Positions 43,914 to 64,000 are shown, counted from the first letter of the stretch. The stretch is DNA of 64,000 bases from Alphaproteobacteria bacterium (GCA_035509415.1 DATJLQ010000007.1:696-64695); one strand, 5' to 3'. Notes: generated by a model not told the origin, from the letters alone. Made by a program: numbers and translations.

Positions 43914-45059
43914 TCACGGCGAGCCCGCGGCTTCCGCCGGGCCGTCGAGCCCCTCGAACCAGGCCTTGGGGCGGCGCCGCGGCGGGCGCACGAGGTAGAG
44001 GGCGGCGAGCGCGAGCGGCACGAAGCAATTGACGTAGAGGAGCGGGAGGAGCGAGAGGTCCTTCCCGGCGACGTTCTGGATGCCGACCTCGGCCGCCTGC
44101 AGGAAAACGACGCACAGGATCGCGACCAGGACGCGCAGCGTCTGGCCCTGGCGGCTGAAATCGCCCGAGAGCAGGGCCGCGAGCCCGATGAGCGTGAAGG
44201 TGAAGGCGTAGAACGGGCTCACCAGGCGCTGGTGCGCCTCGACGATGAGCTGGCCGAAATAGAACCGGTCGTTGGCATCGTTCATGTTGGGATGGAGCAG
44301 CTCGCCGAGGAAGCGCTCCTGGGGCCGGCGCCATTGGTTCTCGATGCCTTGGGAGAGCCAGCTCAAATCGACGCTGTACCGGTCGAAATAGAGGATCGAG
44401 AGGCGGCCGTCGGTGGGGTTCACCTCCTGGCGGTTGCCGTTGAACAGGACCACGCGCGGCCCGTCGGGCGAGGAGATCAGCTCGCCGCGCTCGGCGGTGT
44501 AGGTCACCGGACGTTTCGGGTTGCGCATGTCCTCGACCAGGATGCCCGCGAGCTCGCCGTCGCCGACGCGCGAGCGCACATAGACCGTGAGCCCGTCGCC
44601 GATCGTGTTGAACTTGCCCTCCTGCAGCAGGAGCGCCGAGAAGTTGTTGTGGATCGCGAACTCGAGGTCCCGGAAGTCGCGGTACGAGGCCGGGAGGAAA
44701 TAGAGGTTGATCGCGTAGGCGGCGACCAGCACGACGCCCGCGATCGCCAGGGCCGGAAGGGCGAGCGACATCTGGCTCACGCCGATCGAGCGCAGCACCA
44801 CCAGCTCGCGGTCCATCCAGAGCTTGTTGTAGGTGAACAGCACCGAGCTGAAGAGGGCGATCGGCAGCACGATCGCGAGGAAGCTCGGCAGCAGGAGCGC
44901 CGTGAGGTAGAGGAAGGTGCCGAACGAAATGCCCTTGTCGACGATCAATTCGACGAAGCGCAGCGACTGGGTGAGCCAGATGGCGCAAGTCAGGCAGAAG
45001 CTGACGAACAGCATCGCGACGAGAAGCTGCTTCAGAATGTAACGGCCGTGCGCCTTCAT
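43914..45059 (-). CDS. lptF: LPS export ABC permease LptF.
   Basis: YjgP/YjgQ family. Start at the internal ATG 45059 (MKAHGRYILKQLL). Confidence 0.85.
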   Translation of the reverse strand: MKAHGRYILKQLLVAMLFVSFCLTCAIWLTQSLRFVELIVDKGISFGTFLYLTALLLPSFLAIVLPIALFSSVLFTYNKLWMDRELVVLRSIGVSQMSLALPALAIAGVVLVAAYAINLYFLPASYRDFRDLEFAIHNNFSALLLQEGKFNTIGDGLTVYVRSRVGDGELAGILVEDMRNPKRPVTYTAERGELISSPDGPRVVLFNGNRQEVNPTDGRLSILYFDRYSVDLSWLSQGIENQWRRPQERFLGELLHPNMNDANDRFYFGQLIVEAHQRLVSPFYAFTFTLIGLAALLSGDFSRQGQTLRVLVAILCVVFLQAAEVGIQNVAGKDLSLLPLLYVNCFVPLALAALYLVRPPRRRPKAWFEGLDGPAEAAGSP

Positions 45060-47440: not shown

Positions 47441-48562
47441 TTGGTAAGCCGCATCACCGCGATCTACCGCATCGAGAGCGACGCGCACGCGATCGGCGCG
47501 CGCGCCCAGGCGCTCGCGGTCGAGCAAAGCGTAGAGATGCCGGTCGCGGCGATCGACGACCGCATGGTGCTCGACGAGATCGTCGGGCGCATCGAGGGGA
47601 TCGAGGAGTTGGCACCCGGCCGGTTCGAGGTGCGTATCGGGCTCGCGGTCGCGACCACCGGCCCCGAGGTCGGCCAGCTCATGAACATGCTGTTCGGCAA
47701 CAGCTCGATCCACCCGGACATCGAGCTCCACGACGCGATCCTGCCGCCCGAAATCCTGACCGCGTTCGGCGGGCCGCGCCACGGGCTCGAGGGATTGCGC
47801 GCGCGCGTCCGCGCCGAGGGGCGCGCCATGACCTGCTCGGCCTTGAAGCCGCAGGGTTTCGCGCCCGCGCGCCTTGCCGAGCTCGCGCGGCGCTTCGCTC
47901 TCGGCGGCATCGACTACATCAAGGACGATCACGGCCTCGCCGACCAGGCCTATAGCCCGTTCGACGAGCGCGTGGGCGTCTGCGCCGAGGCGGTCGCGAA
48001 GGCGGCGCGCGAGACCGGCCATCCGACGCGCTATTTGCCGAGTCTCTCGGGCGATCTCGACCGGCTCCGGGCGCAGGTGAAGCGCGCGCGCGCGGCCGGG
48101 CTCGACACACTCCTGATCGCGCCGCTGGTCGTGGGGTTGCCCGCGTTCCATGCGTTGGTGCGCGAGAATCCGGACATGGCGTTCATGGCCCATCCCGCAC
48201 TCGCGGGCGCCGCGCGTTTCGCGCCCCCACTTCTGTTGGGAAAGCTGTTTCGGCTGTTCGGTGCCGACGCGACCGTGTTCCCGAATCACGGCGGCCGCTT
48301 CGGCTATTCGCGCGAGACCTGCGCGGCGCTGGCCGACGCGGCGCGCGGCGCCTGGGGTGCGCTCGAGCCCGCGGTGCCGGTGCCCGCGGGCGGGATGACG
48401 CCGGAGCGCGTGCCGGAGATGCTTGACTTCTATGGGACCGAGGTCATGCTCCTCATCGGCGGCGGACTGCTCGCGGCGCGCGAGCGGTTGACCCAGGAGA
48501 CGGCGGCGTTCGTCGCGCGCGTCGCCGAGATCAAGGGCACGAGCCGCGGGCGCAGGCGATAG
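47441..48562 (+). CDS. RuBisCO-like protein (form IV RLP).
   Basis: RuBisCO large-subunit barrel with the GGIDYIKDDHG motif, but no canonical carboxylase active-site set. 373 aa. Confidence 0.8.
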   Translation: MVSRITAIYRIESDAHAIGARAQALAVEQSVEMPVAAIDDRMVLDEIVGRIEGIEELAPGRFEVRIGLAVATTGPEVGQLMNMLFGNSSIHPDIELHDAILPPEILTAFGGPRHGLEGLRARVRAEGRAMTCSALKPQGFAPARLAELARRFALGGIDYIKDDHGLADQAYSPFDERVGVCAEAVAKAARETGHPTRYLPSLSGDLDRLRAQVKRARAAGLDTLLIAPLVVGLPAFHALVRENPDMAFMAHPALAGAARFAPPLLLGKLFRLFGADATVFPNHGGRFGYSRETCAALADAARGAWGALEPAVPVPAGGMTPERVPEMLDFYGTEVMLLIGGGLLAARERLTQETAAFVARVAEIKGTSRGRRR

Positions 48563-48571
48563 TCGAGGCCA

Positions 48572-48622
48572 GGCGAACGTCGTGACTGGGCGAACGTCGT
48601 GACTGGTCGAACGTCGTGACTG
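48572..48622. repeat. Tandem direct repeat, 3 x 17 bp (GGCGAACGTCGTGACTG), between the RLP and cupin genes.
   Basis: Seen directly. The third copy has G to T at position 2. Confidence 0.85.
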
Positions 48623-48649
48623 GGCCATCGCCGTAAGAGGGCGGAAGCC

Positions 48650-49168
48650 ATGAGCGTCGATCTCAAGAACAAGAGCAAGACCGTATCCGCGCGCGCGGCG
48701 CCGACGCGCGACGACGATGCGCGTTTCCGCGCCTTTGCGGACGGCTTCGAATGGAGCGGGGTCGAGCGCCTTCCATACAAGGAGGAGGGCAGCGCTCCCT
48801 TCAAGTCGATCTCGCGCCAGATTCTGTTCGCCGACCCGAAGCTCCACTGCGAGCTGCGTTATTTCGAGATGGCGCCGGGCGGCTACTCGACCCTCGAGCG
48901 GCACGAGCACGTGCATGCGGTGATGATCCTGCGCGGCCGCGGCGAGTGCCTGCTCGGGAATTCGGTGCGCGCGGTGAAGACGAACGACCTGATCTCGATC
49001 CCGTCGATGACCTGGCACCAGTTCAAGGCCTCGGCGGGCGAGCCGTTCGGCTTTCTCTGCATGGTGAATGCGGAGCGCGACAAGCCGCAGCTCCCGAGCG
49101 CGGACGAGCTTGCATCCCTCAAGGCCGACCCGCGGCTTGCGGCGTTTCTCGCCAATTATCGCTCTTGA
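48650..49168 (+). CDS. Cupin-domain protein.
   Basis: Cupin motifs (TLERHEHVHAVMILRGRG). RBS AGAGGG upstream. Confidence 0.75.
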   Translation: MSVDLKNKSKTVSARAAPTRDDDARFRAFADGFEWSGVERLPYKEEGSAPFKSISRQILFADPKLHCELRYFEMAPGGYSTLERHEHVHAVMILRGRGECLLGNSVRAVKTNDLISIPSMTWHQFKASAGEPFGFLCMVNAERDKPQLPSADELASLKADPRLAAFLANYRS

Positions 49169-49746
49169 AGTACGTGCGCGCGGCTCAGGCGGACGCGCCC
49201 TCGGTCGCCGCGATCTTGCGCCGCACGGCGACGCGCGCCTCGCTCACGGTGCGGAACGCGCTGCCGTCGAGCCCGTCGAGCGGCGGTACCGACGAGTAGA
49301 ACAGGAATCCCTCGCTCGCGCGCACCAGAATCCCGGCGGGCGCCCCGAGGAGCGTGAAGATCACGGTGTCCGACTTGCGCATTCGCTCGATCCTTGGCCC
49401 GTTTCCTCGCGCGGCAGGTCTCAATTCCTTGCCGGACCAGACTCGCGCCGCCGGCCCGACTTCGGACCGACTCTTCACATACAGGAATTTCGTGACATTC
49501 CTGCGGAAGCCTGTCGAGCCTACGGCCGGGGGCCGGGTTTTAGGGGGCGCTGTCTAGCATAGTTTTGATCTAGATCAAAAATCTTTCCCCATGCTGCAGC
49601 GCGACGACGGCTCTGCCACGGCGCGCGAATGGGGGCGCTGCGGCGCACAATCGCCGGGAAACGACCTGACGACATCGTGCGAACCATGCATAATTCGCAA
49701 GGCAAGCTTGCGCGCGCCTTCGGCGGCCTAGGAGCGGGACGATCCC

Positions 49747-51750
49747 ATGAAGATCAAAAAGACGCGGGCCACGCCGTCCCGGAAGAAGATCGCGAAGGGT
49801 GCGCCGCAGCGCGAACGCCGGCGCGGCGAGGTCGCGGCCCTGCGCACCGAGCTCGCGACCAGCGAGGCGCGTTTCAGCTTGCTGACCGCGATCGCGGCAG
49901 CCCCCATCCTGCTGCTCACGCCGGCGCTCGAGGTATTCGAGATCAACGACGAGGCCGAGGCGGTCTACGGCCGCCGGCGCGCCAATCTCGTCGGGCGCGA
50001 TTATTTCGCGGCCCTCGATCCCGAGCGCATCGGCGGGCTCACCGAATCCGATTTCGATGCCGTGCTCGCGGGGCGCACCGTGCGCGGCGTCGAGGGTGTG
50101 GTGCGCCGGCCCGACGGCAGCGAGCGCGCCCTCCTGTGGAACGCGAGCCGGCTTCTCGACTCGGCCGGCCGCGTCCTCGGCATCGTCGCGGTCGCCCAGG
50201 ACGTGACCGAGCGGCGCCAGGTCGAGGAGGCGCTGCGCGAGCGCGAGGCGCGGCTGAGCTCGATCATCGCGACGGCACCCGACGCGATCATCACCATCGA
50301 CGGGCGCGGCACGATCCAGTCCTTCAGCATCGCCGCCGAGAAGATGTTCGGCTACGAGGCGGGCGAGGTGATCGGGCGCAACATCAAGATGCTCATGCCC
50401 AATCCCTACCGCGACCGCCACGACGGCTATCTCGCGCGCTACCGCCGCACCGGCGAGAAGCGCATCATCGGCACCGGCCGCGAGGTCGAGGCGCAGAAGA
50501 AGGACGGCAGCGTGTTCCCGATGGAGCTCGCGGTGGGCGAGGTCAAGGTCGGCGGCACGCGCATCTTCACCGGCTTCATCCGCGACCTCTCGGCGCGCGC
50601 GCGCATGGAGGCCGAGCTGCGCCAGGCGCAGAAGATGGAGGCGGTCGGCCAATTGACCGGCGGCGTCGCGCACGACTTCAACAATCTCCTGACCGTGATC
50701 ATGGGCAATCTGGAGATGCTCGGAGACCGGGTCGTGTCGGCGGCCGAGCGCGAGCTCGTGGGCGAGGCGCAGGAGGCGGCCGAGCTCGGCGCCCAGCTCG
50801 CGGGCCGCCTCCTCGCCTTCGGCCGGCGCCAGGCGCTGAGCCCGAAGCCGATCCAGTTGAGCGCGCTGGTCAAGGACATGGTCGTGCTGTTGTACCGCTC
50901 CCTCGGCGAGACGGTGCGCATCGAGACGCGCCTCGCCCAGGATTTGCCGCTTACCCTCGCGGATCCGGGACAGGTCGAGAACGCGCTCCTGAACCTCGCG
51001 ATCAACGCGCGCGACGCCATGCCCCAGGGCGGCCTGCTCACGATCGAGACCGCGACCGTCGAGCTCGGCGTCGAGGACGCCGTCTATACCGAGATTCATC
51101 CCGGCCGCTACGTCATGCTGGCGGTGATCGACACCGGAATCGGCATGCCGCCCGAGGTCGCCGAGCGCGCCTTCGAGCCCTTCTTCACGACCAAGCAGGC
51201 GGGGCTCGGCAGCGGCTTGGGCCTGAGCATGGTCTATGGCTTCGTGCGCCAGTCGGGCGGTGCCGTGCGGCTCGAAAGCGCTCCCGGGCGCGGCACCACA
51301 GTACGCATGTTCCTCCCCGTGGCGCCCGACGAGATCCCCGCGACCGACGAGCGGGGCGGCGAGACGTCGCAGTCGGTCGGCGGCGGCGAGACCATCCTCG
51401 TGGTCGAGGACGATGCGCGCGTGCGGCGCGTCTCGGTGCGGCACCTCGAGGCGCTCGGCTACAAGGTGATCGCGGTCGAGGACGGGCCCGCGGCGCTCGC
51501 GTTGCTCGACGCCGGGACGCCGGTCGATCTTCTCTTCACCGACGTCGTCATGCCGGGCGGAATGAGCGGGCTCGATCTCGCGCACGAGGCGCGCGCGCGC
51601 CGGCCCGAGCTGCCCATTCTCGTGACCTCTGGCTATACCGATCCCGGAACCGCCGAGCGCGGGCTGCCCTCGGGGAGAACCGGCTGGCTCGCCAAGCCCT
51701 ATCAGACGGGCGCGCTCGAGGCGTCGCTACGCGAGCTTCTGGGAGGCTAG
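49747..51750 (+). CDS. fixL: Hybrid oxygen-sensor histidine kinase FixL (heme-PAS, HisKA, HATPase, C-terminal receiver).
   Basis: The FixL heme-PAS signature (FGYEAGEVIGRNIKMLMPNPYRDRHDGYLARYRRTGEKRIIGTGREVEAQKKDGSVFPMELAVGE) is followed by the H-box (VAHDFNNLL), N/G boxes and a receiver (ILVVEDD...DLLFTDVVMPG). The minus-strand ORF 49570-51585 is its antisense shadow. Confidence 0.85.
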   Translation: MKIKKTRATPSRKKIAKGAPQRERRRGEVAALRTELATSEARFSLLTAIAAAPILLLTPALEVFEINDEAEAVYGRRRANLVGRDYFAALDPERIGGLTESDFDAVLAGRTVRGVEGVVRRPDGSERALLWNASRLLDSAGRVLGIVAVAQDVTERRQVEEALREREARLSSIIATAPDAIITIDGRGTIQSFSIAAEKMFGYEAGEVIGRNIKMLMPNPYRDRHDGYLARYRRTGEKRIIGTGREVEAQKKDGSVFPMELAVGEVKVGGTRIFTGFIRDLSARARMEAELRQAQKMEAVGQLTGGVAHDFNNLLTVIMGNLEMLGDRVVSAAERELVGEAQEAAELGAQLAGRLLAFGRRQALSPKPIQLSALVKDMVVLLYRSLGETVRIETRLAQDLPLTLADPGQVENALLNLAINARDAMPQGGLLTIETATVELGVEDAVYTEIHPGRYVMLAVIDTGIGMPPEVAERAFEPFFTTKQAGLGSGLGLSMVYGFVRQSGGAVRLESAPGRGTTVRMFLPVAPDEIPATDERGGETSQSVGGGETILVVEDDARVRRVSVRHLEALGYKVIAVEDGPAALALLDAGTPVDLLFTDVVMPGGMSGLDLAHEARARRPELPILVTSGYTDPGTAERGLPSGRTGWLAKPYQTGALEASLRELLGG

Positions 51751-51825
51751 GCCGCTATCGTATCGAAATAAGGCGCACCCCCACCCAGCTTGCGCTAGGG
51801 CGCGGCTTCGCCTCGCCAACCCTGC

Positions 51826-51847
51826 GCAACCCTCCCCCCTTCAGGGG
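51826..51847. terminator. Bidirectional hairpin terminator between convergent fixL and the OmpR-type regulator.
   Basis: Perfect 9-bp stem CCCTCCCCC-TTCA-GGGGGAGGG. G/T-rich flank. Confidence 0.5.
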
Positions 51848-51901
51848 GAGGGTAGGGTGGGGGGTGACGGTTTGGAATAGCCGACGGAGCATTAGGCCGC
51901 G

Positions 51902-52630
51902 TTAGGCCTCGGTCACCTCGGTCGCGAAGATGTAGCCCGCACCGCGCACCGTCTTGATCAGCTCGGGATGCGCGGGGTCGCGCTCGATCTTGCGCCGGAG
52001 CCGCACGACCTGGGTGTCGATCGCGCGGTCGAACGCCGCCCAATCGCGCCCCTTGACCCGGTCCATGAGCTGGTCGCGGTCGAGCACGCGATTGGGGCTC
52101 GAGACGAAAGCGCGCAGCAACTCGAATTCGCCGCCGGTGAGCTCGACCGGCTCGCCGCTCGCGCGCCTCAATTCGCGCTTCAAGAGATCGAGGCGCCAGC
52201 CCGCGAAGGCGAGCACGTGGCCGCGCTCCGATTTCGCCTCGACCGGCTCGGCCGGCGCGCAGGGGGCGCGGCGCAGCACGCTACGCACGCGCGCCAGCAC
52301 CTCGCGCAAATGGAACGGCTTGGCGATGTAGTCGTCCGCCCCCGCCTCGAGCCCCGCGACCCGGTCGATCGGATCGCCCATGCCGGTCAGGATGATGATC
52401 GGCACCGCCGAGCGCTGGCGTACCTCGCGCGCGAGGCTGAGCCCGTCGTCGCCGGGCATGACGAGGTCCAAGAGGATCAGATCGATCCCGCCCTGGGCGA
52501 ACGCGGCGCGTAGGCCGGCGCCGTTCTCGGCCAGGCTCACGCGCAGGCCCGCCTCCACGAGGTAATTCTGCAGCATGGTGCGGATGCGCTTGTCGTCGTC
52601 GACCACCAGGATATGGGGGACATCGCTCAT
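51902..52630 (-). CDS. OmpR/PhoB-family DNA-binding response regulator (FxkR-like).
   Basis: Receiver (ILVVDDD...LILLDLVMPGDDG) plus C-terminal winged helix (LTGGEFELL...GAGY). Confidence 0.8.
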   Translation of the reverse strand: MSDVPHILVVDDDKRIRTMLQNYLVEAGLRVSLAENGAGLRAAFAQGGIDLILLDLVMPGDDGLSLAREVRQRSAVPIIILTGMGDPIDRVAGLEAGADDYIAKPFHLREVLARVRSVLRRAPCAPAEPVEAKSERGHVLAFAGWRLDLLKRELRRASGEPVELTGGEFELLRAFVSSPNRVLDRDQLMDRVKGRDWAAFDRAIDTQVVRLRRKIERDPAHPELIKTVRGAGYIFATEVTEA

Positions 52631-52828
52631 GGCTGGGACAAAACGCGTTACATATCAATGCGTTGATCTTGGCCGCGCGGTGCTTCGCGCCGTCACCTTT
52701 TGTCACATTTCGCCAATTGTTGAAACCACTTTCCGCTTTCCCCGCCATCAACGCGCGACAGGACGCCCTTAAGTCTGAACGCGGCGCCGGGGACCGACCC
52801 TGGTGCGAGGCAAACCGAGGAGGGCACC

Positions 52829-53560
52829 ATGTACGCACACGCCGCCGCTGCCGCAGTTCTCGCTGCGGCTCCCGTCTTCAACCGAGGCGCTTCCGCGATC
52901 TTCCAGGGCACCGAGCGCATGGGCGCCGTGCGCATGGGGGCCGCGGGCACGGTCCAGAAGCTCGAATCGGGCAAGACCCTGTTCGCCGAGGGCGACGACG
53001 CCGAGAACGTCTACGAGCTGATGAGCGGCATGGTGAAGCTCTTCAAGCTGCTCCCCGACGGACGGCGCCAGATCACCGGCTTCCTCTGGTCGGGCGACAT
53101 CATGGGCGTGGCCCATTCCGAGCTCTATCTCTACGGCGCCGAGGCGATCACGGACGTGGTCCTGTGCCGCTACCCGCGCGCGCGCTTCGACGACCTGGTC
53201 GACCAGGTTCCCGGTCTCGGGCGTCGCGTGCTCAAGGTCATCGCGCGCGAGCTGAGTGCCGCGCAGGAGCAGATGCTGCTGCTCGGCCGCAAGACCGCGG
53301 TCGAGAAGATCGCGAGCTTCCTCCTCGACATGGCCGAGCGTCAGCTCGAGCAGCTCGAGACGCGGGGCTGCGTGCTGGTGCCGATGGGCCGCAGCGACAT
53401 CGCCGACTATCTCGGCCTCACGACCGAGACCGTGAGCCGCACCCTCACCAAGCTCAAGCAGGACCACGTGATCGCGTTGCCGAGCCCGGCGCGCGTGACG
53501 GTCGAGAACCGCGATCGCCTCGCGGAGCTCGCTGCGGGGGACGGCGACGAGGATTTCTAA
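52829..53560 (+). CDS. fixK: Crp/Fnr-family transcriptional regulator, FixK-type (no N-terminal Cys cluster).
   Basis: cNMP-like domain (VKLFKLLPDGRRQITGF) and C-terminal helix-turn-helix (RSDIADYLGLTTETVSRTL). RBS GAGGAGGG upstream. Confidence 0.85.
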   Translation: MYAHAAAAAVLAAAPVFNRGASAIFQGTERMGAVRMGAAGTVQKLESGKTLFAEGDDAENVYELMSGMVKLFKLLPDGRRQITGFLWSGDIMGVAHSELYLYGAEAITDVVLCRYPRARFDDLVDQVPGLGRRVLKVIARELSAAQEQMLLLGRKTAVEKIASFLLDMAERQLEQLETRGCVLVPMGRSDIADYLGLTTETVSRTLTKLKQDHVIALPSPARVTVENRDRLAELAAGDGDEDF

Positions 53561-54022
53561 ATGCGTCACATGGAAGGACATGGGGGCATGATCGCGGCAT
53601 TGAGAGCGGCGCCGCCCAAATCGGGAAAGCCCTATCTCGGGCGGCGCGCCCTCGTGATCGAGGGCGATGCCAAGTCGCGCGCGCTGTGCGTCGAGCGGCT
53701 CGAGCGTCTGGGCTTCGAGGTGGTCGAGGCCGTGGGCGGCGTCGATGCGCTGCGCGCGGCGCGCCTCGAGACGCCGGACGTGATCCTGCTCGATACCGAG
53801 CTGCACGACGTGCCGGGGGTCGAGCTGATCCGCTGGCTTTGCGCCGATCCTGCGCTTGCGCGCGTGCCGATCGCGGTCGTGGTCGCATCGGCGCGGCGGC
53901 GCTCGGCGCCGAGCGCGATCGCGGCCGGCGTCCGCGCCGTGCTCGAGAAGCCGTTCACCGCCGCCGACATCGACGACGCGATCGCAGAGGCACTTCCGCT
54001 TCCCGACCCGGCATCGCCATGA
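53561..54022 (+). CDS. Single-domain response-regulator receiver protein (FixT-like candidate).
   Basis: REC fold (VILLDTELHDVPG, K in EKPF). Its start abuts the fixK stop. Confidence 0.65.
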   Translation: MRHMEGHGGMIAALRAAPPKSGKPYLGRRALVIEGDAKSRALCVERLERLGFEVVEAVGGVDALRAARLETPDVILLDTELHDVPGVELIRWLCADPALARVPIAVVVASARRRSAPSAIAAGVRAVLEKPFTAADIDDAIAEALPLPDPASP

Positions 54023-54395: not shown

Positions 54396-55394
54396 ATGAG
54401 CATCGTTCAGAATCTGTTCGGATCGCCGGCCCGCGGGCGGGGCCAGCCCGAACCCACTCTGCGCGCGCCCGAACTCCATCGCGACGCGAGCGCCGTTCCG
54501 GCGCACGTCGAAGTGGCGAATTGGCGTTACGAGAACATCGACGTCGAGCTCGATCCCGAGGCACGGACCTTCTGGTGCTTCATGCGCACCAAGGAGCGCG
54601 GCAGCTTCACGCTCGAGCTGATGCAGGACATCGCGCACATGCAGCGCTCCTTCCCGCGCCTGTTCGCCGAGCGCGCGCACGAGCCGGAGAAGCCGTTCGA
54701 GTACTTCGTGTTCGCGTCGCGCATTCCGGGCACCTACAATCTGGGCGGCGATCTCGGCTTCTTCGCCGAGCGCATCCGCGCGCGCGACCGCGCGGCCTTG
54801 AGCCTCTACGCCCACACCGCGGTGCGCGCGATCCACAAGAACCACACCGCGTTCGACGTGCCGGTCGTGACCATGGCCTTGGTCCAGGGCGACGCGCTCG
54901 GCGGCGGGTTCGAGTGCGCGCTCTCGCTCGACATGATCGTGGCCGAGCGCAGCGCCAAGATGGGGCTGCCGGAGATCCTGTTCAATCTCTTCCCCGGCAT
55001 GGGCGCCTACAGCTTCCTCTCGCGCCGGCTCGACGCCGCGCGCGCCGAGAAGATGATCCTCTCGGGGAAGATCTACAGCGCCGAGGAGCTCCACGAGCTC
55101 GGCATCGTCGACGTTCTGGCGGACGACGGCAACGGCGAGGAGGCGGTGCGCGAGTACATCGACCGCCACGCCTACCGGCACAACGCCTATCGCGGCGTGT
55201 TCCAGGCGCGGCGCCGGGTCAATCCGGTGCCGTTCGACGAGCTGCGCGACGTGGTCGACATCTGGGTCGAGGCGGCGCTCAGCCTCAAGGAAGCGGACTT
55301 GCGCAAGATGGAGCGGCTCACCGCGGCGCAGAACCGGCGCCGTGCCGCGACCGCCCAGCCCGAGCCGGTCGTCTCGGCGCTGCCGGCGGAGTGA
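54396..55394 (+). CDS. Enoyl-CoA hydratase/isomerase (crotonase) superfamily protein. Candidate RpfF/DSF-synthase-like enzyme.
   Basis: Crotonase fold (ALVQGDALGGGFECALSLDMIVA, LPEILFNLFPGMGA). GGAGGG RBS 9 nt before the ATG at 54396. Confidence 0.7.
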   Translation: MSIVQNLFGSPARGRGQPEPTLRAPELHRDASAVPAHVEVANWRYENIDVELDPEARTFWCFMRTKERGSFTLELMQDIAHMQRSFPRLFAERAHEPEKPFEYFVFASRIPGTYNLGGDLGFFAERIRARDRAALSLYAHTAVRAIHKNHTAFDVPVVTMALVQGDALGGGFECALSLDMIVAERSAKMGLPEILFNLFPGMGAYSFLSRRLDAARAEKMILSGKIYSAEELHELGIVDVLADDGNGEEAVREYIDRHAYRHNAYRGVFQARRRVNPVPFDELRDVVDIWVEAALSLKEADLRKMERLTAAQNRRRAATAQPEPVVSALPAE

Positions 55395-55552
55395 CGGGTC
55401 CGGCCGCGGCCGTTTGACGGTTCAGAAGGCCCTGCCCGGCGACGGGCAGGGCCCCTCCGCGCGGAAGCCGTCCGCGGCGGATGCGAGACGACACCCGGCG
55501 CCCGTCGCGGGCGTCGGCCCCCCCAAGGCCCGATCGGGCCCGATCCAGCCCC

Positions 55553-58093
55553 TCAGCTCGTGCTTTCCGACTGATTGTCCGCGGCGAGATGCTGCTGCAG
55601 CGCGCGCCGCAAGCGCTCGAACTCGGCCCTGAGCCGCTCGACGTGGCGCGGCCCGTGCTCGGCGAGCTCGGCCAGCGTGATCTGGCGCCATTGCAGGCAG
55701 AGATCGTAGAGCGCCTTGGCGCCGATGTTGGCGGCGCCGCTCCTGAGCGCGTGCACCTTGGCGCGGAACGCCGGCACGTCGCCCTCGTCGACCGAGGTCG
55801 CGAGGCTCTCGAGCACCACTTCGGCGTCGCGCAGGAACTCCTTCACGAGCTCGGCGAGGAACGGTTTTCCGCCCAGCTCCTCGAGCTCGCCGAGCGTCGC
55901 GCGGTCGACGGTCGGAACGAAGCTCGCGGCCTGGAAGCGCGGATGGGACGCGATGTCGGTCACGGGTGCGCGCTCGGCGTCGGTCGCAGCGGCAAGCGGG
56001 GCCGCGGGCGCGAGGCTGCGGATCACCTCGAGGAGCCGCGCCGGCTCGACCGGCTTGGTGACGCAGGTGTCGAGCCCGGCCTCGGCGCAACGCGCCGCGA
56101 CCTCGGGCGTGGTGTCGGCGGTGAGGGCGATGATCGGCACGTGCGGCTCGCCGAGCGAGGCGAAGCGATAGAGCTTGGTCGCCTCGATGCCGTTCATCAC
56201 CGGCATGTTGATGTCCATCAGCACGAGGTCGAAGCGCGACTGCTCGAGCGCGTCGAGCGCCTCCTCGCCGTTGCTGACGATGCGCGATTCGTAGCCCGCG
56301 CGCTCGAGGATCTTCGCGATCACGCGCTGGTTGATGCGGTTGTCGTCGGCGACCAGGATACGCAGCTTCCGGTGCGCGCGGGGTGCCGGCACCGGCGCCT
56401 CGCCCACGGCGGGTGCCCGGCGCAGGATCGCCGCGATCGAGAGCGCGCCCCAGAGCTCGCTCTCGCCGAGGGCGGGCGAGAGGGCGGTGGCGAAATGCCG
56501 GCGCAGCGCCAGTGCCGGAAGCTGCGGCGGCACCGCGTCGTCGATCAGCACCAGCGGGAGCCGGCCCGCGGGATCGAGGCCCTGAAGCGCCGAGGCGAGC
56601 GCGTCGACGTCGGCGGTGACGCCCGCGCGATGCAGCATGAGCGTGTGCCACGAGCCGTCGACCGAGTTGCGCAAGAGGCCGATCGCCTGGGCGGCGCTCG
56701 CGACCGTGCGCAGGGTGACGCTCCAGGGAGCGAGGCGTTGGCGCAGCCGCTCCGCGAGCCCGCTGTCGGCGCTGAGCAGCAGCACCTCGGAGCCCGCGAA
56801 GGCGGGGGCCGTCGGCGCCTCGGCCTGGCGCTCGAGATCGAGGGTGAACCAGAAGGTGCTGCCCGCGCCGAGCGAGCTCTCGACGCCGATCTCGCCGCCG
56901 AGCCGCTTCACCAGGCGCTGGCAGATCGCGAGGCCGAGGCCGGTGCCGCCGAAGCGGTCGATGATGGTCTCGTCCGCCTGGGTGAAGCTCTCGAAGATGC
57001 GGCCCACCGCGTCGGGCGCGATGCCGATGCCGGTGTCCGACACCTCGACGCGCAGGCGCACCTTGGAATCCGCGAGCGGCGTCGCGTCGACCGCGAACAC
57101 CACGCCGCCCGCGTCCGTGAACTTGACCGCGTTGCCGGCGAGGTTGAGCAGGATCTCGTGGAGATGGCGCCGCTCGCCATGGAGCAGCAGCGGCGTGCGC
57201 GTCGTGAGGTGGATGGCGAGGCGCAAATTCTTCGCGCGCGCCTGGGCGGTCACCAGGCCGCGCACGTCGCTCAAGAGCTCGCCCAGGTCGAAATCGACCA
57301 GGTTCACGGGCATGGCCCCCGCCTCGATGCGCGAGAGATCGAGGATGCCGTCGATGAGCGCGAGCAACGACTTCGCGGCCCCCTGGATGGTGCGCGTCAT
57401 GTCGTGCTGCTCGGGATCGAGGCGCGTGTCCGTCAAGAGTCCGCCCATGCCGATGATGGCGTTGAGCGGCGTACGCAGCTCGTGGCTCACGCTGGCCAAG
57501 AACATGCTCTTCGCCTGGTTCGCCGCCTCGGCCTGCTGCTTCGCGACCGAGAGCTTCTTGATCAGCGTCCCGGCATAGAGCGGGATGATGAGGAGGCCCG
57601 CGAGCAGGCCGAGCGAAAGATTGAGATGGTCGCCCCAGAAGGGCGTGGTCGCGATCACGAGCGAGAAGCCGAGCATCGCCTCGGCGGTCGCGATCAGGAG
57701 GGACCGGACGCCGAAGCGGAAGCCGTTCCCCAGCACGACCCAAAGATAGATCGGGAAGATCGCGGCCGTGACGGCGCCGCCGAGATAGAGCTGGATCGAC
57801 ACCCCCGCCATGTCGCCCGCAAGGGCGATGTTCCGGCGCACCAGCGAGGCGTGCGGGCGCCACAGGATGTGGGCGAAGATCGCGATCGTGACGCCGGTAT
57901 AGACGAACATCACGACCAGCGCCGGGTCGAGCGCGCCGCCGCGGTGGATCAGAAGATAGACGATGATGGCGATGCAGAAGGCGAGCCGGTTGAAGCTCAT
58001 CTCGTGCTCGCTGTCGGGACGGCCGCGCAGCTCGGCCGCGAGGCGGCCGATGACCGAGAGCGAGTTCTTGGGTGCCGCGTCGGGTTCGCTCAT
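55553..58093 (-). CDS. Hybrid sensor histidine kinase with 5-6 TM input domain, HisKA, HATPase, receiver and C-terminal HPt (RpfC-like architecture).
   Basis: H-box [14 protein letters not shown]-box GGTGLGLAI, receiver ILVADDN...LVLMDINMP, HPt [13 protein letters not shown]. Start set at ATG 58093. A GTG at 58162 is possible. The plus-strand ORF 55481-58405 is its antisense shadow. Confidence 0.8.
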
Positions 58094-58100
58094 CCTCGGC

Positions 58101-58664
58101 TCAGCCCTTTCGTCCGCGCGTGCGGAAGACGCGCGCGTGCCGCTCCTCGGCCGCCTCGGCACCCCGGCGCACGAGCGGCAGCACGTAGGTCTCGAGCGTT
58201 TTCACGGGCGCCGGCTCGTCGCGCGCGACCGGGCGCACCACGAGGCCGCCGAATACGTGGCTCAAAGCGCCCGCGTCGTCCGCGAGCGGCGCCAACACGG
58301 TCTCGACCCGGCAGGGATGCGCATCGAGCGCGCAGGTGCCGGCCGCGACCGCGGGTGCCGACGACGCGATCACGAGCTCGAACGCCTCGATCCAGGACGC
58401 GGTGAAGGCGCCGAACTCGAAGTCGCGCACGCTGCAGCCGCGCACGTCGCGGCGGAACGCGTGCGCCGCCTCCTCGCCCATGAGGCGCATGCGCGCCTCG
58501 GCGCCGTCGATCTCGGCGAGCAGGACCACCGGCAACAGGCTCGGGATCTCGACCGGATCGATGTCGCGCCGCGCGGGCATTTGACGCGTGCCGCGCTTGC
58601 GGTTCCAGTAGCGCAGCACCGCCGCCAGGCGCGGAAACTGCACGTCGGTCTCTTCGGTCGTCAT
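58101..58664 (-). CDS. Small PAS-domain protein, co-oriented upstream of the hybrid kinase.
   Basis: PAS-like fold. Start uncertain: ATG at 58664 or GTG at 58694. Confidence 0.55.
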
Positions 58665-58982: not shown

Positions 58983-60671
<1,689 letters not shown>

Positions 60672-60912
60672 GGCGCGCTATCGCGGGTTCTGCGCCGTCA
60701 ATCCGCGACGCGCCTTCGGTCGCGCCCGAACAGGCGCGTCGGCGCCGCCTGGTTCGAGAGATACGGGTCGCGTCCCTGCGAGGGATCGCCCGCCGCGAGC
60801 GTGTCGTGGATCGGCGTGTCCAATGCGGTCACCGGGACGGGCGCTCGGTATTAGGGCGCAAACGCCACCAATGGGCGCTTGGGTTTAGGCATGAGCGGCT
60901 TATCTTGGCACC

Positions 60913-61380
60913 ATGGCCGAGCCGCAAGTCATATACGCACTGCGCAAGAAGCGCAACAAGATCGAAGCCGCGATTGCTGGGTACGAGCGCAAGATCAAGG
61001 AAGCCCAAGCCGACCTGGCGCACGTCACGGCGTCCCTGCGGCTGTTCGAGCTCTCGGGCGACCCGAGCGAGTTCCCGGCCTACATCGACCTTAACCGAAT
61101 CCTGCGGCGCGGAGAGACGACGCGCCTGTGCCTGGACGCCCTCAAGGCCGAAGGGCCGCTCGACACGCGCCAGCTCACCCAGCGCGTCATGGCGACCAAA
61201 GGGCTCAACCAGGACGACCGGGTGTTGGCAAAGGCCATTGCGCTGCGAATCGTCCAAACCTTGCGCGTGAAGGCTCTACGAGGTGGCTTGTTGGACGGTT
61301 CCGAACGCCGAAAGGGCGCATGTGTTTGGCGACTAACGTTGGGGACCACCCGAATTGACGCGCGGCCACGAGAAGGCTAA
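60913..61380 (+). CDS. Hypothetical protein.
   Basis: 155-aa ORF at the boundary where GC content starts to drop. No recognisable family. Confidence 0.4.
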   Translation: MAEPQVIYALRKKRNKIEAAIAGYERKIKEAQADLAHVTASLRLFELSGDPSEFPAYIDLNRILRRGETTRLCLDALKAEGPLDTRQLTQRVMATKGLNQDDRVLAKAIALRIVQTLRVKALRGGLLDGSERRKGACVWRLTLGTTRIDARPREG

Positions 61381-61859
61381 AGCTGGAGTAACTGAGATAT
61401 CACAATATGGTTACAGAGGATCGAAATTGTGGCCGAAAAATATCACGTGAAATCAAAGGATTGCTGGCTTCGTGTCTTTGGGTCCGCTGGAGTTGCTTTC
61501 GTTGCCATTGGCGCTACATCAGATAACCTAGTAAAGTTCCTATGGGGGCCGGGTTATATGTGGATCGTGGGCGGCAGCGTTTTGGCAGCGCTTTGGGCCT
61601 ATGAGACATACTGCTTTTGGGCGCCACAAGATGGATCTTGAGCATCACATCTGCCGGGTTTGTACATTCCTGGGGCGAGATGTCCCATGGGGATTTATGA
61701 TTGCGGCAGCGATCATTTCTATAACGCCTTTGGGAGAGGGCTGGCAGAGGTGGTCGGCATATTTGCTCGCCTTTAGTTTGTTTCTCCTTGCAATCACTTA
61801 TCTCGTAAGGAGATTTGTTCTTTCGCGTCATTAGCCTGGACCTAAGTGGTCTACCCATA

Positions 61860-63000
61860 AATCAGGCGCGCGACGCTCCAGCTGTGCGGACTGCCGATCA
61901 TTATTTGACCGTCAAACGTAACCATGGTTACGTTTATAAGTGGCTTTTTTCTCTAAATGCCGCTGCCAGTAACCACAGAAATCGACTGACGGCTTGCGCT
62001 TCATCGCGAGCGCCGCAATTTGGTTGACCTGATCGCCGTTCGGCGTGCGGCGATTATCTTCACGCCACGATGCCTCTTGTGCGTACCGAAGTAGATAAGG
62101 GCCTGCAATGTGGTGGTGATGCCCAATCTCACCCCGGCGCATGCGGCTAAAAAATTCCTCAGCCCAATTCGTGCATGCTCCGTCGAGGCTGTACGCTTCC
62201 TCGTGATTGATGCGCTTCATTTCGAAGCGGTCGTGTAGTTCGTCCCAGGCACGGGCTTCATCGGCATTGACGGTCGTGCCTTTCGCGATGCGGGACCGAA
62301 TGAAATCAAGCGCCTGCCCTTCGGTACGAAAGACGGCGGGAAGCGAATTGCCGCCACGCTCGCGGATCACCACGACGCATTGGCGCTTCCCGCTCTTGTT
62401 CTGCCACAAGCGCCGATCGCGCCTGTTCTCCCGCTCGTTTGCAGGCTTGACGTAGCCGCCAAAAAATCCGCCGTCGATTTCGCGGGTCTTGCCATCTCCG
62501 CCGACCACGCGCCCTTTCAATTCGCCTGCCATCACTTCGCGCATCTTGTGCGCCAAGACGAAACTGGCCTTGTACGAAATGCCGAGATCGCGGCTAAGCG
62601 CGAGCATGCTCTTGCCCTTAACCTCATTACAGAAAATCGCAATTGCCGCGAGATAGCCGCGCAAGGGCAGTTTGTGTGAAGCGAACAGGGTGCCGGACGT
62701 AACCGAGAAATCTGCCCGGCAGCCCCCGCACCGCCAACGCGGGGCCCCGTGAGGGCGCCGGCAGTCGTACACCTTCGGTGAGCCGCATTTCGGGCGGTAC
62801 GGCGCGCCGTCAGTCTCGGGCCAGCGCACCTTGCAAAACAGCGCTTCCGCTTCGACGTCCGAAAGCCGCATGACCTGGGCCAAGGTCAGGCTTTTCGCGG
62901 CTCGGGACAGGAGGAAGTGCTGTGCCATGGGTGTCATTTATGACACCTACGGGCGGCCTTGTCAAAGGGAAACGTGTCAGATATGCTCCTTTTTAGTCAG
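61860..63000 (-). mobile_element. IS1595-family insertion sequence (approximate extent).
   Basis: Transposase gene flanked by palindromes at 61916-61935 and 62932-62947. Exact terminal inverted repeats were not resolved. Confidence 0.45.
61912..62937 (-). CDS. IS1595-family transposase (ISXO2-like DDE domain with N-terminal zinc-ribbon).
   Basis: Zn-ribbon CGSPKVYDC...RWRCGGCRADFSVTSGTLF plus a DDE_Tnp_IS1595 core. The gene lies in a low-GC segment. Confidence 0.85.
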   Translation of the reverse strand: MTPMAQHFLLSRAAKSLTLAQVMRLSDVEAEALFCKVRWPETDGAPYRPKCGSPKVYDCRRPHGAPRWRCGGCRADFSVTSGTLFASHKLPLRGYLAAIAIFCNEVKGKSMLALSRDLGISYKASFVLAHKMREVMAGELKGRVVGGDGKTREIDGGFFGGYVKPANERENRRDRRLWQNKSGKRQCVVVIRERGGNSLPAVFRTEGQALDFIRSRIAKGTTVNADEARAWDELHDRFEMKRINHEEAYSLDGACTNWAEEFFSRMRRGEIGHHHHIAGPYLLRYAQEASWREDNRRTPNGDQVNQIAALAMKRKPSVDFCGYWQRHLEKKATYKRNHGYV

Positions 63001-63002
63001 GA

Positions 63003-63254
63003 GTGACCCCTTTGGGCCTAGCTAAATCCGAGGCTGAAGTTGCCGAACGCGCATCCCGCTATCTCAAGGCGGAGCTAAAGCGCGCTGGCATTACCTATGA
63101 GGAATTGGCTCAACGATTGAAAAAACATGGTTTACCGGACGAAACCGTTGATTCCATCAAGGCCAAGCTCAAGCGCGGCACGTTTGCCGCGACCTTCTTT
63201 CTGGCTTGCCTCGCGGCGCTTGAATTGGAGGGAGTTCGGTTAGAAGATATTTAG
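63003..63254 (+). CDS. Hypothetical small protein in the low-GC segment.
   Basis: 83-aa ORF, Lys/Glu-rich. No family assignment. Confidence 0.35.
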   Translation: MTPLGLAKSEAEVAERASRYLKAELKRAGITYEELAQRLKKHGLPDETVDSIKAKLKRGTFAATFFLACLAALELEGVRLEDI

Positions 63255-63300
63255 GCAATACTATCCTTTTGAACGCGGTGACCGTATGGGGAGGGCGGGC

Positions 63301-64000
63301 ATGACGCTAAAAGAGCAATGGCGCCACCCCGCTCACATACAGAAGCAAAAGAACGCCGAGAGAAAAGAGCGGGAACGCCAGCAACACAATGACCATATAC
63401 AAATAGTCACTGCGCTTAACCGCATCAGCGACCAACTTGCCGCTGATGAACAGCAAGAGAGTCGCGATCACAGAAAGCGTGCATGTCGTGAGTGGATGAC
63501 TATCATTTTGATTTTTGCGACCGTGACGACGGCCGGAATCGGAGACTGGATATTCTATCTGACGATGCGGGACGCCCGTATCGCTTCTGCTAATCAGCAC
63601 AGTGACAGCACTTCGGTTATGATTGCTGATAGCCGTGCGTGGGTCGGACCAGTCGATTCGAATTTTAGGTCGCCCCCTGTGAAAGATCAGGAAATTATAG
63701 GAATCATTCTTTACCATAATACTGGGCGCGAACCCGGTCAGAACAGTGCACACGACGTAGTTGCGTACATCGGAAGCGTTGCTGATGATAACAGCGGCAA
63801 ACTCACCTCCAAAATCAACCAATATGTGACTAACTGTCTCGCCGCGCCAGAGCACGTGGGAGGGGAGGTAATTTACCCATCGACCGGATTTAGCTCGATG
63901 ACGACTGAATTCCAGGTTCCAAAAGAGGATGTAACCCAAGACGTAATTGATGGAAAAGCCTACATTGTCGTGCAGGGTTGCTTCATCTACAGAACCGCTG
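63301..64000 (+). CDS. Hypothetical membrane-anchored protein (5' partial; continues past the window end).
   Basis: ATG at 63301 preceded by GGGGAGGG. The ORF is open to 64000. A charged N-terminus is followed by a TM helix (WMTIILIFATVTTAGIGDWIFYL). It is more protein-like than the antisense ORF 63307-63939. Confidence 0.45.
   Translation, partial: MTLKEQWRHPAHIQKQKNAERKERERQQHNDHIQIVTALNRISDQLAADEQQESRDHRKRACREWMTIILIFATVTTAGIGDWIFYLTMRDARIASANQHSDSTSVMIADSRAWVGPVDSNFRSPPVKDQEIIGIILYHNTGREPGQNSAHDVVAYIGSVADDNSGKLTSKINQYVTNCLAAPEHVGGEVIYPSTGFSSMTTEFQVPKEDVTQDVIDGKAYIVVQGCFIYRTA

Follow-up and report, generated by a model that had tools for sequence, protein, structure and literature searches.

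Results

A four-gene cluster with the parts of an hFixL-FxkR-FixK relay

In a 64,000-nucleotide stretch of DNA from an Alphaproteobacteria bacterium (GCA_035509415.1, DATJLQ010000007.1:696-64695; the whole stretch is referred to here as the window), positions 49747-54022 hold four genes that, as judged from sequence and from comparison with relatives, probably form a chromosomal hFixL-FxkR-FixK low-oxygen relay. An initial reading of the DNA without database searches (the sequence-only reading) had described a hybrid FixL, an OmpR-type regulator, a FixK and a stand-alone receiver, and all four open reading frames (ORFs) were confirmed at the coordinates and with the domains that it gave. They comprise hfixL (49747-51750, + strand), the gene of an OmpR/PhoB-family response regulator of FxkR type that is convergent with hfixL and divergent from fixK (51902-52630, - strand), fixK itself (52829-53560, + strand) and the gene of a single-domain receiver (53588-54022, + strand).

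The hfixL product is a soluble hybrid histidine kinase of 667 aa in which Pfam and NCBIfam place, in order, a PAS domain, a heme-PAS domain, HisKA (H309), HATPase and a C-terminal receiver (D599 and K650; Response_reg at 550-661); no transmembrane segment was seen on inspection of the sequence by eye. Against the FixL heme domains of known structure, from B. japonicum and S. meliloti, the second PAS domain gives E values of 1e-42 to 1e-46, and the heme pocket is in register, with the proximal histidine H225 followed by R231 (+6), I240-I241 (+15/+16) and R245 (+20). The protein thus unites the complete FixL-type heme-PAS signature with a HisKA-HATPase core and a C-terminal receiver, as the sequence-only reading had held, and is 54% identical over 527 aa to hFixL9 of R. 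leguminosarum. Ahead of the first PAS domain, residues 1-48 (49747-49890) form a strongly basic, Lys/Arg-rich extension, and the N-terminus of the homologue at locus L093 is also basic. At locus L101 (2770-4333) two separate genes, for a 405-aa PAS-kinase and a 105-aa receiver, make up the hFixL homologue, reflecting either a naturally un-hybridised state or a frameshift in the assembly.

The convergently encoded regulator (242 aa) has the Response_reg and Trans_reg_C domains of the OmpR/PhoB family (Pfam, 7.5e-28 and 7.5e-25). Its receiver residues D11-D13, D55, T82 and K104 are intact, and its winged helix carries the recognition helix DRAIDTQVVRLR, with T206. Alignment to FxkR9 (pRL90026) of R. 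leguminosarum 3841 gave 54% identity over 234 aa; deletion of fxkR9 reduces the microaerobic expression of fnrN and fixNOQP, these roles having been shown genetically (PMC7888657). NCBIfam offers no specific name for the window protein, the best model being OmpR at a score below its cut-off.

The fixK product contains the Pfam domains cNMP_binding, HTH_Crp_2 and Crp. Because it carries the DNA-reading motif E-x-x-S-R as ETVSR at residues 200-204 (E200, S203 and R204) and lacks an N-terminal Cys cluster, its sole cysteines being at 113 and 181, it resembles FixK and not FnrN. Its identity to FixK9b of R. leguminosarum is 42%. The top NCBIfam models are FixK and FnrL, each below cut-off, and the score against the FixK equivalog (172.7 bits against a cut-off of 300) means that this is a FixK-like protein and not that exact equivalog.

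Conserved linkage and phylogeny of the FxkR-type regulator

Eighty loci retrieved using the window OmpR-type protein were compared for gene context and placed in a neighbour-joining tree. The synteny of fxkR, fixK and hfixL recurs in ~25 loci; ~17 genomes of several families, and further metagenome contigs, have hfixL next to an fxkR homologue that diverges from fixK. The loci linked to fixK and/or hfixL come from Rhizobium, Ensifer, Shinella, Neorhizobium, Microvirga, Roseiarcus, Methylocystis, Devosia, Salinarimonas, Roseicyclus and several metagenome-assembled genomes (MAGs). The layout of the window, with hfixL convergent with fxkR and fixK divergent from it, is found also at L015, L017, L024, L035, L036, L093, L094, L097 and L098. 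In the tree, the clade that includes FxkR9 and the window protein holds essentially all, and essentially only, the loci linked to fixK and/or hfixL, and within it the window protein groups with those of L093 and L094 at 95% bootstrap. The protein therefore has the OmpR/PhoB architecture and the linkage to fixK and hfixL expected of an FxkR, and lies, with moderate support, nearer to the validated FxkR than to paralogues.

A Salinarimonas MAG (L019, 5600-6003) has an FxkR homologue, a convergent hfixL and the K-box GTTACACTTCGTCACG, and there the divergent gene, judged by eye, looks like that of an ECF sigma factor and not like fixK, a sign that regulators of FxkR type may have come to control other outputs.

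A K-box variant between fxkR and fixK

The published FxkR site, the K-box, is GTTACA-N4-GTTACA; in R. leguminosarum its centre lies at -62 relative to the start site of fixK (PMC7888657; PMC4999443). The sequence-only reading had noted a GTTACA half-site, which lies at 52647-52652 and not at 52640-52645 as reported, and had concluded that no full K-box was present. A variant K-box, GTCACC-TTTT-GTCACA (GTCACCTTTTGTCACA), is in fact found 45 bp downstream of that half-site at 52692-52707 (+ strand). It consists of two direct repeats 10 bp apart, oriented toward fixK, lies 61 bp from the fxkR ATG and 121 bp ahead of the fixK ATG, and is the predicted binding site of phosphorylated FxkR. Under a matrix built from 16 such sites in relatives, none of them from the window, it ranks first of ~128,000 window positions (17.6), the runner-up scoring 17.4 and the GTTACA hexamer of the sequence-only reading 10.9. 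The runner-up, GTTACATTCTGAAGCA (45028-45043, - strand), falls within the first codons of a membrane-protein ORF and was judged a chance match. The pattern GTYACM-N4-GTYACM, which was defined after the site had been seen, has one match in the window against 0.01 expected. With nine of the 12 consensus positions matched, the site belongs to the motif class and departs from the exact consensus.

Every syntenic locus has a K-box-type direct repeat between fxkR and fixK, always oriented toward fixK. Among relatives found via FixK and via the receiver family described below, boxes of the GTCAC type occur at the same place upstream of fixK in L093 and L100 (both GTCACAGACTGTCACA), L094 (GTCACAAACCGTCACA), L098 (GTCACGTTTTGTCGCA), L101 (GTCACAGACTGACACA), L102 (GTCACAGACCGTCACA), L103 (GTCACAAAACGTTACA) and L104 (GTCACAATCTGTCACA). 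L100, L102 and L104 have the box without an adjacent fxkR; the K-box therefore travels with fixK.

When six fixK upstream regions were aligned, only three elements proved to be conserved: the K-box, a hexamer resembling a -35 element, and a block of the form CCATCAA..CG.GAC. The putative -35 hexamer, TTGAAA in the window (52720-52725, + strand), follows the K-box by 12 nt (12-13 nt across the aligned regions), and relatives, including R. leguminosarum fixK9b, have TTGATA, TTGACT, TTAACA or similar at the same offset. The block, CCATCAACGCGCGAC in the window (52745-52759, + strand; 37 nt after the K-box), is invariant or nearly so at fixed spacing in all six regions and is present also in L102-L104; it may represent the core promoter of fixK, its start-site region, or a further operator. 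A sigma-54 reading of the block was dropped on inspection by eye, the GG/GC spacing being absent from the window copy. A search of the fxkR-fixK spacer for the FixK/FNR site, or anaerobox (TTGAT-N4-ATCAA), found nothing better than three mismatches and therefore yields no evidence of FixK autoregulation there. The palindrome ATCAATGCGTTGAT at 52654-52667 is everted relative to the anaerobox.

A recognition-helix residue that tracks the K-box half-site

Within the FxkR clade the recognition helix has the form DRxID-X-Q..RLR, and the residue at X varies together with the half-site of the K-box. Alanine occurs with GTTACA at 13 loci, including those of R. leguminosarum and S. meliloti, and at these only four of 26 half-sites have C at position 3. 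Threonine occurs with GTCACA in six proteins, namely that of the window (T206) and those of L093, L094, L098, L101 and L103. Asparagine occurs with GATACA in L015, L024, L035 and L036 (seven of eight half-sites), and L097 pairs serine with a mixed site. Outside the clade, the residue is V, I, M or L in OmpR paralogues; we take its position to correspond to V203 of OmpR and V197 of PhoB on the DNA-reading face of the recognition helix. The pattern is as regulator-operator co-evolution would give, and ties the FxkR-type protein of the window to its predicted site at 52692-52707.

Upstream and downstream regions of hfixL

The sequence-only reading had overlooked a perfect FixK/FNR anaerobox, TTGATCTAGATCAA, at 49565-49578. 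It lies between hfixL, whose ATG is 169 bp away, and a divergent 65-aa ORF, and is the sole perfect match in the 64 kb, where three matches with at most one mismatch were observed against 0.34 expected, and L098 keeps it at the same aligned position with one change (TTGACCTAGATCAA). A consensus scan identified a sigma-70-like promoter candidate for hfixL, CTGACG-17-CATAAT (49666-49694, + strand), whose CATAAT block and flanks are identical in L098.

The 65-aa ORF (49185-49382, - strand) has no family match, is annotated as a gene on metagenome contigs and is 86% identical in L098; it could encode a FixK-regulated small protein. Between it and the anaerobox lies a perfect inverted repeat, CAGGAAT-N8-ATTCCTG (49482-49503), which may be an operator or an RNA hairpin; L098 has it at 100% identity between diverged flanks. 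At the other end of hfixL, between the convergent hfixL and fxkR genes, a GC-rich hairpin (CCCTCCCCCC-TTC-AGGGGGAGGG, 51830-51852), unique in the window, is nested in a longer stem. The region 51751-51901 folds at -77.8 kcal/mol (z = -3.26), and the hairpin is probably a bidirectional transcription stop.

A family of single-domain receivers linked to fixK

The fourth gene encodes a single-domain receiver (Pfam Response_reg). It had been described as starting right at the fixK stop, and the ORF is indeed open from 53561, directly after that stop, but the conserved start is the ATG at 53588, 27 nt farther on. Gene callers picked this ATG on three near-identical contigs from metagenomes, and the closest relative, P0035, has its equivalent but no ATG directly at the fixK stop. 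A single-sequence search of 5.8 billion proteins found almost no relatives, and the best match, P0002, has an unrelated gene context and was set aside. A profile built from the window protein together with three relatives brought up a compact family of ~45 proteins, mostly of ~145-195 aa, scoring 100-240 bits, with generic CheY/DivK-type receivers below ~80 bits. In all ten independent contexts examined, a family member directly follows a Crp/Fnr gene in the same orientation, 22-30 nt apart where genes have been called, and in seven of the ten an OmpR-type regulator is divergent upstream. No description of such a receiver family for hFixL systems was found in the searchable literature.

The pocket of the window receiver (153-aa numbering) consists of E34-G35-D36, D78, V108 and K130, and the best PDB match of the protein is DivK. 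Across the family the equivalent of CheY Lys109 is invariant, and two motifs, QLRD after the acceptor position and WLRS, are near-invariant and its own. The position of CheY Asp13 is non-acidic in ~36 of 38 members (mostly Ala, with Gly in the window protein and Ser in its closest relative), that of Thr87 is variable (Val in the window), and the phospho-acceptor Asp is replaced in four of the 38, by Glu in two (including P0035) and by Ala in two. If the function outlasts loss of the acceptor in these members, it is unlikely to rest on phosphorylation.

In one branch the fixK-receiver pair is followed by a conserved protein of ~154 aa that has no Pfam or NCBIfam match and is absent from the window (L093 6574-7038, L095 1276-1752, L100 6815-7279, L102 5579-6040, L104 2203-2667; the L093 and L095 copies are 46% identical).

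Genomic setting and neighbouring genes

The window has a G+C content of ~70%. Its closest copy among the species representatives of the genome collection, from Microvirga, is 58% identical, and DNA 99.0-99.97% identical to it is present in three environmental assemblies. The syntenic relative L098, whose FxkR, hFixL and FixK are 79%, 74% and 71% identical to those of the window, has the same cluster on a 1.4-Mb metagenome contig, which argues for a chromosomal setting; the host is probably an uncultured high-GC soil alphaproteobacterium. There are no nif or cco genes near the cluster, and no hemN homologue was found in the window.

Directly upstream of the cluster (47441-49168, + strand) lie the genes of a RuBisCO-like protein and a cupin. 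The former is of form IV and similar to methylthio-pentyl-phosphate enolase at scores below the cut-offs, and the gene order pirin, TerC, RuBisCO-like protein, cupin is common to the window and L098. Downstream of the receiver are genes for an RpfF-like crotonase (54396-55394, + strand; NCBIfam PRK08788 375 bits, RpfF model 221 bits and below cut-off), a convergent RpfC-like hybrid kinase with HisKA, HATPase, receiver and Hpt domains (55553-58093, - strand) and, beside the kinase, a PAS_5 protein (58101-58664, - strand). Together these three look like a quorum-sensing module of the diffusible signal factor (DSF) type; they are conserved at 86-88% in L098 and absent from the other fixK-receiver loci. 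At the right end of the window (60000-64000) G+C drops from ~69% to 56-62%, and mapping from a 99.97% identical contig (L090) places an IS1595-family transposase (~61912-62937, - strand) and a DUF6471 gene there, so that this segment looks like an insertion or foreign DNA.

Discussion

Proposed mechanism

The conserved synteny, the fixK-linked clade, the homology of the three proteins to rhizobial counterparts and a correctly placed and oriented K-box support the proposal of the sequence-only reading that this cluster is a relay of the kind described in Rhizobium. By strong homology, hFixL would bind O2 at its heme-PAS domain and autophosphorylate as O2 falls. The signal would then pass to the convergently encoded FxkR-type regulator, as homology and synteny suggest, either directly or via the kinase's own receiver. 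Phosphorylated FxkR would bind the K-box variant and activate a bicistron of fixK and the receiver gene; site, conservation and co-variation are computed, and the binding is predicted from them. Autoregulation of fxkR through the same box, as suggested for fxkR9, is possible because the box is so near the fxkR ATG. FixK in turn would act at anaeroboxes, and the copy found upstream of hfixL would give positive feedback. In the weakest step of the scheme, with about even chances, the co-made pseudo-receiver would feed back on the kinase and damp it in the manner of FixT.

Comparison with known systems

The cascade itself is already known, and the searchable literature on it concerns rhizobia. 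Zamorano-Sanchez in 2012 and Reyes-Gonzalez in 2016 are said to have described it in R. etli CFN42, R. leguminosarum and S. meliloti. The cascade of R. leguminosarum (johnstonii) 3841 was treated by Rutten (2021; PMC7888657). The window has the same three proteins and no fixJ in the cluster, and, like the fixK9b-fxkR9 cluster, it has fxkR and fixK diverging from a spacer that bears a 6+4+6 bp direct-repeat K-box directed toward fixK. The arrangement differs from the rhizobial one in several respects. In rhizobia hfixL forms an operon with fixK, whereas in the window it is convergent with fxkR and has its own anaerobox-bearing upstream region; the K-box half-sites are of the GTCAC and not the GTTAC type, with Thr206 where rhizobial FxkR has Ala; and a dedicated single-domain receiver, which rhizobial clusters lack, comes after fixK. 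Unlike the legume symbionts, moreover, the host is uncultured and high in G+C, and its cluster is probably chromosomal. Among OmpR/PhoB winged-helix regulators, the receiver plus Trans_reg_C architecture and the direct-repeat operator of 10-bp spacing are common property; what sets the FxkR clade apart from the other paralogues sampled is A, T, N or S at position X and the tie to the fixK promoter.

The second system that invites comparison is the FixLJ-FixK-FixT feedback loop of Sinorhizobium meliloti and Caulobacter crescentus, on which Garnerone reportedly published in 1999. Like FixT, the window receiver is a small single-domain receiver that, under our proposal, would be controlled by an oxygen cascade. 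The S. meliloti fxkR region on pSymA and FixT1 were located by tblastn and ORFs, and FixT1 also lacks the canonical acidic pair, with V-A-A-D where the window receiver has I-E-G-D. The window differs from the FixT system in that the kinase is a soluble hybrid, the regulator is of OmpR type and not FixJ, and the receiver gene directly follows fixK. FixT is a single-domain receiver that is induced by the FixLJ cascade, has never been seen phosphorylated and inhibits FixL autophosphorylation (Stein 2020, PMC7078487). The 4-Cys Fe-S motif is Caulobacter-specific (PMC7078487), and the window receiver does not have it, its two cysteines (C43 and C94) showing no motif arrangement. The FixT-like anti-kinase suggested by the sequence-only reading thus stands by analogy, given the position after fixK and the degenerate pocket, and not by detected homology: both pairwise BLASTP with FixT1 and the NCBIfam FixT model were negative, so that the protein was rejected as a demonstrable member of the FixT family by sequence. 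A FixT-like feedback role is nevertheless our best guess for it, held with roughly balanced confidence.

Points against the relay and alternative explanations

A number of observations weigh against the relay as proposed, or against single steps of it. The bootstrap support of the FxkR clade is moderate (65-69%), and figures of percent identity do not separate the candidates by themselves, some OmpR paralogues without fix neighbours being equally similar to the window protein (L007 56%, L009 54%); context and phylogeny do separate them. The K-box variant has three mismatches to GTTACA-N4-GTTACA, for which ~0.16 occurrences are expected in the intergenic region by our estimate, so that the match alone is not rare. 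The co-variation rests on few independent events and is partly confounded by shared ancestry, the Thr group being one clade (95% bootstrap) and the Asn group poorly resolved. The target of the anaerobox is ambiguous, since it lies ~130 bp upstream of the best sigma-70-like promoter of hfixL and is equidistant from hfixL and the 65-aa ORF, and none was found upstream of hfixL in L093; it may drive a second, FixK-dependent hfixL promoter, the 65-aa ORF or both. With its D78 and K130 the window receiver could still be phosphorylated. BLASTP against S. meliloti FixT1 found only a 12-residue KPF patch (E 0.003 in this single comparison), and the NCBIfam FixT model NF051882, which recognises FixT1, does not appear in the top 25 models of the window receiver or of its relatives. 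Finally, ccoNOQP, the kind of gene that FixK targets, was not found in the window, and the earlier statement that the cascade lacks FixJ holds for the window, where tblastn with S. meliloti FixJ gave receiver-level similarity only (31% over ~100-120 aa); a fixJ gene may lie beyond it.

The alternative that fares best retains the cascade and makes the receiver a true phospho-acceptor, which would either compete with FxkR as a phosphate sink or serve as a step in the relay of the hybrid kinase. Hybrid kinases often use extra receivers, the acceptor Asp is retained in 34 of the 38 family members examined, and a near-invariant Asp two residues past the first acidic position might complete the metal site. 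We nonetheless consider this reading unlikely: the position of CheY Asp13 has lost its acidic residue in nearly all members and that of Thr87 is Val in the window, an Hpt gene is not part of the conserved unit, and the acceptor is Glu in P0035 and Ala in two other members, so that phosphorylation is not essential to the family.

If, instead, the OmpR-type protein were unrelated to the cascade and merely beside fixK, then fixK would be driven by FixLJ or another regulator elsewhere. The lack of a specific NCBIfam name, the sub-threshold OmpR match and the failure of percent identity to separate the protein from paralogues without fixK would fit this, but many genera share the synteny with fixK and hfixL, the protein falls in the clade of the validated FxkR9, the K-box is conserved with variant bases that track the recognition-helix residue of the window protein, and no FixJ homologue was found within the 64 kb; we regard the case as very improbable. 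We give still less credence to a receiver belonging with the DSF-type genes (54396-58093) and not the oxygen cascade. The RpfF-like crotonase and the Hpt-bearing RpfC-like kinase are directly downstream, with the same neighbours in L098, but 346 bp lie between the receiver and crotonase genes, members of the receiver family follow fixK in ten of ten contexts, and the crotonase-kinase pair is missing from L093 and L100-L104; as it is present only in L098, these genes are neighbours and not partners. An operator made up of the GTTACA half-site and the palindrome ATCAA-N4-TTGAT (52647-52667), the two elements that the sequence-only reading had noted, can likewise be set aside as scarcely credible. 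In its favour, the hexamer equals a consensus half-site, the palindrome is perfect (5+5), and the pair lies close ahead of the fxkR start, a position occupied in R. leguminosarum by an anaerobox with a proposed role in repressing fxkR9 (PMC7888657). Against it, L098, L093 and L094 retain neither element, the half-sites of the palindrome are in the reverse order for an anaerobox, and the matrix score of the half-site falls well short of that of the K-box variant.

Implications

Under the relay that we favour, what is new at this locus is the gene order with a separately controlled hfixL, the GTCAC K-box with its matching Thr, and a dedicated family of fixK-linked pseudo-receivers. One comparative study places the origin of the relay in an ancestor of the Rhizobiaceae (PMC4999443). 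Because the same linkage occurs in Microvirga, Methylocystis, Devosia, Roseiarcus, Salinarimonas and Roseicyclus, hFixL-FxkR-FixK appears to be a general microaerobic switch; it has been studied almost only in legume symbionts, and here the complete module is found in an uncultured soil alphaproteobacterium. We put forward, tentatively and as a possibility somewhat short of even, a one-residue/one-base code, in which one sub-lineage of these systems has changed Ala to Thr in the recognition helix along with GTTACA to GTCACA, with Asn and GATACA as a third state elsewhere, and has also acquired a hitherto undescribed family of pseudo-receivers, cotranscribed with fixK, that would be an independently evolved counterpart of FixT for the hybrid FixL. 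The specificity rule linking FxkR and K-box can now be tested directly, as can the question of whether the fixK-linked receivers give hFixL systems the negative feedback that FixT gives FixLJ. If the code holds, the residue would be a readable specificity code and could insulate parallel FxkR circuits from one another.

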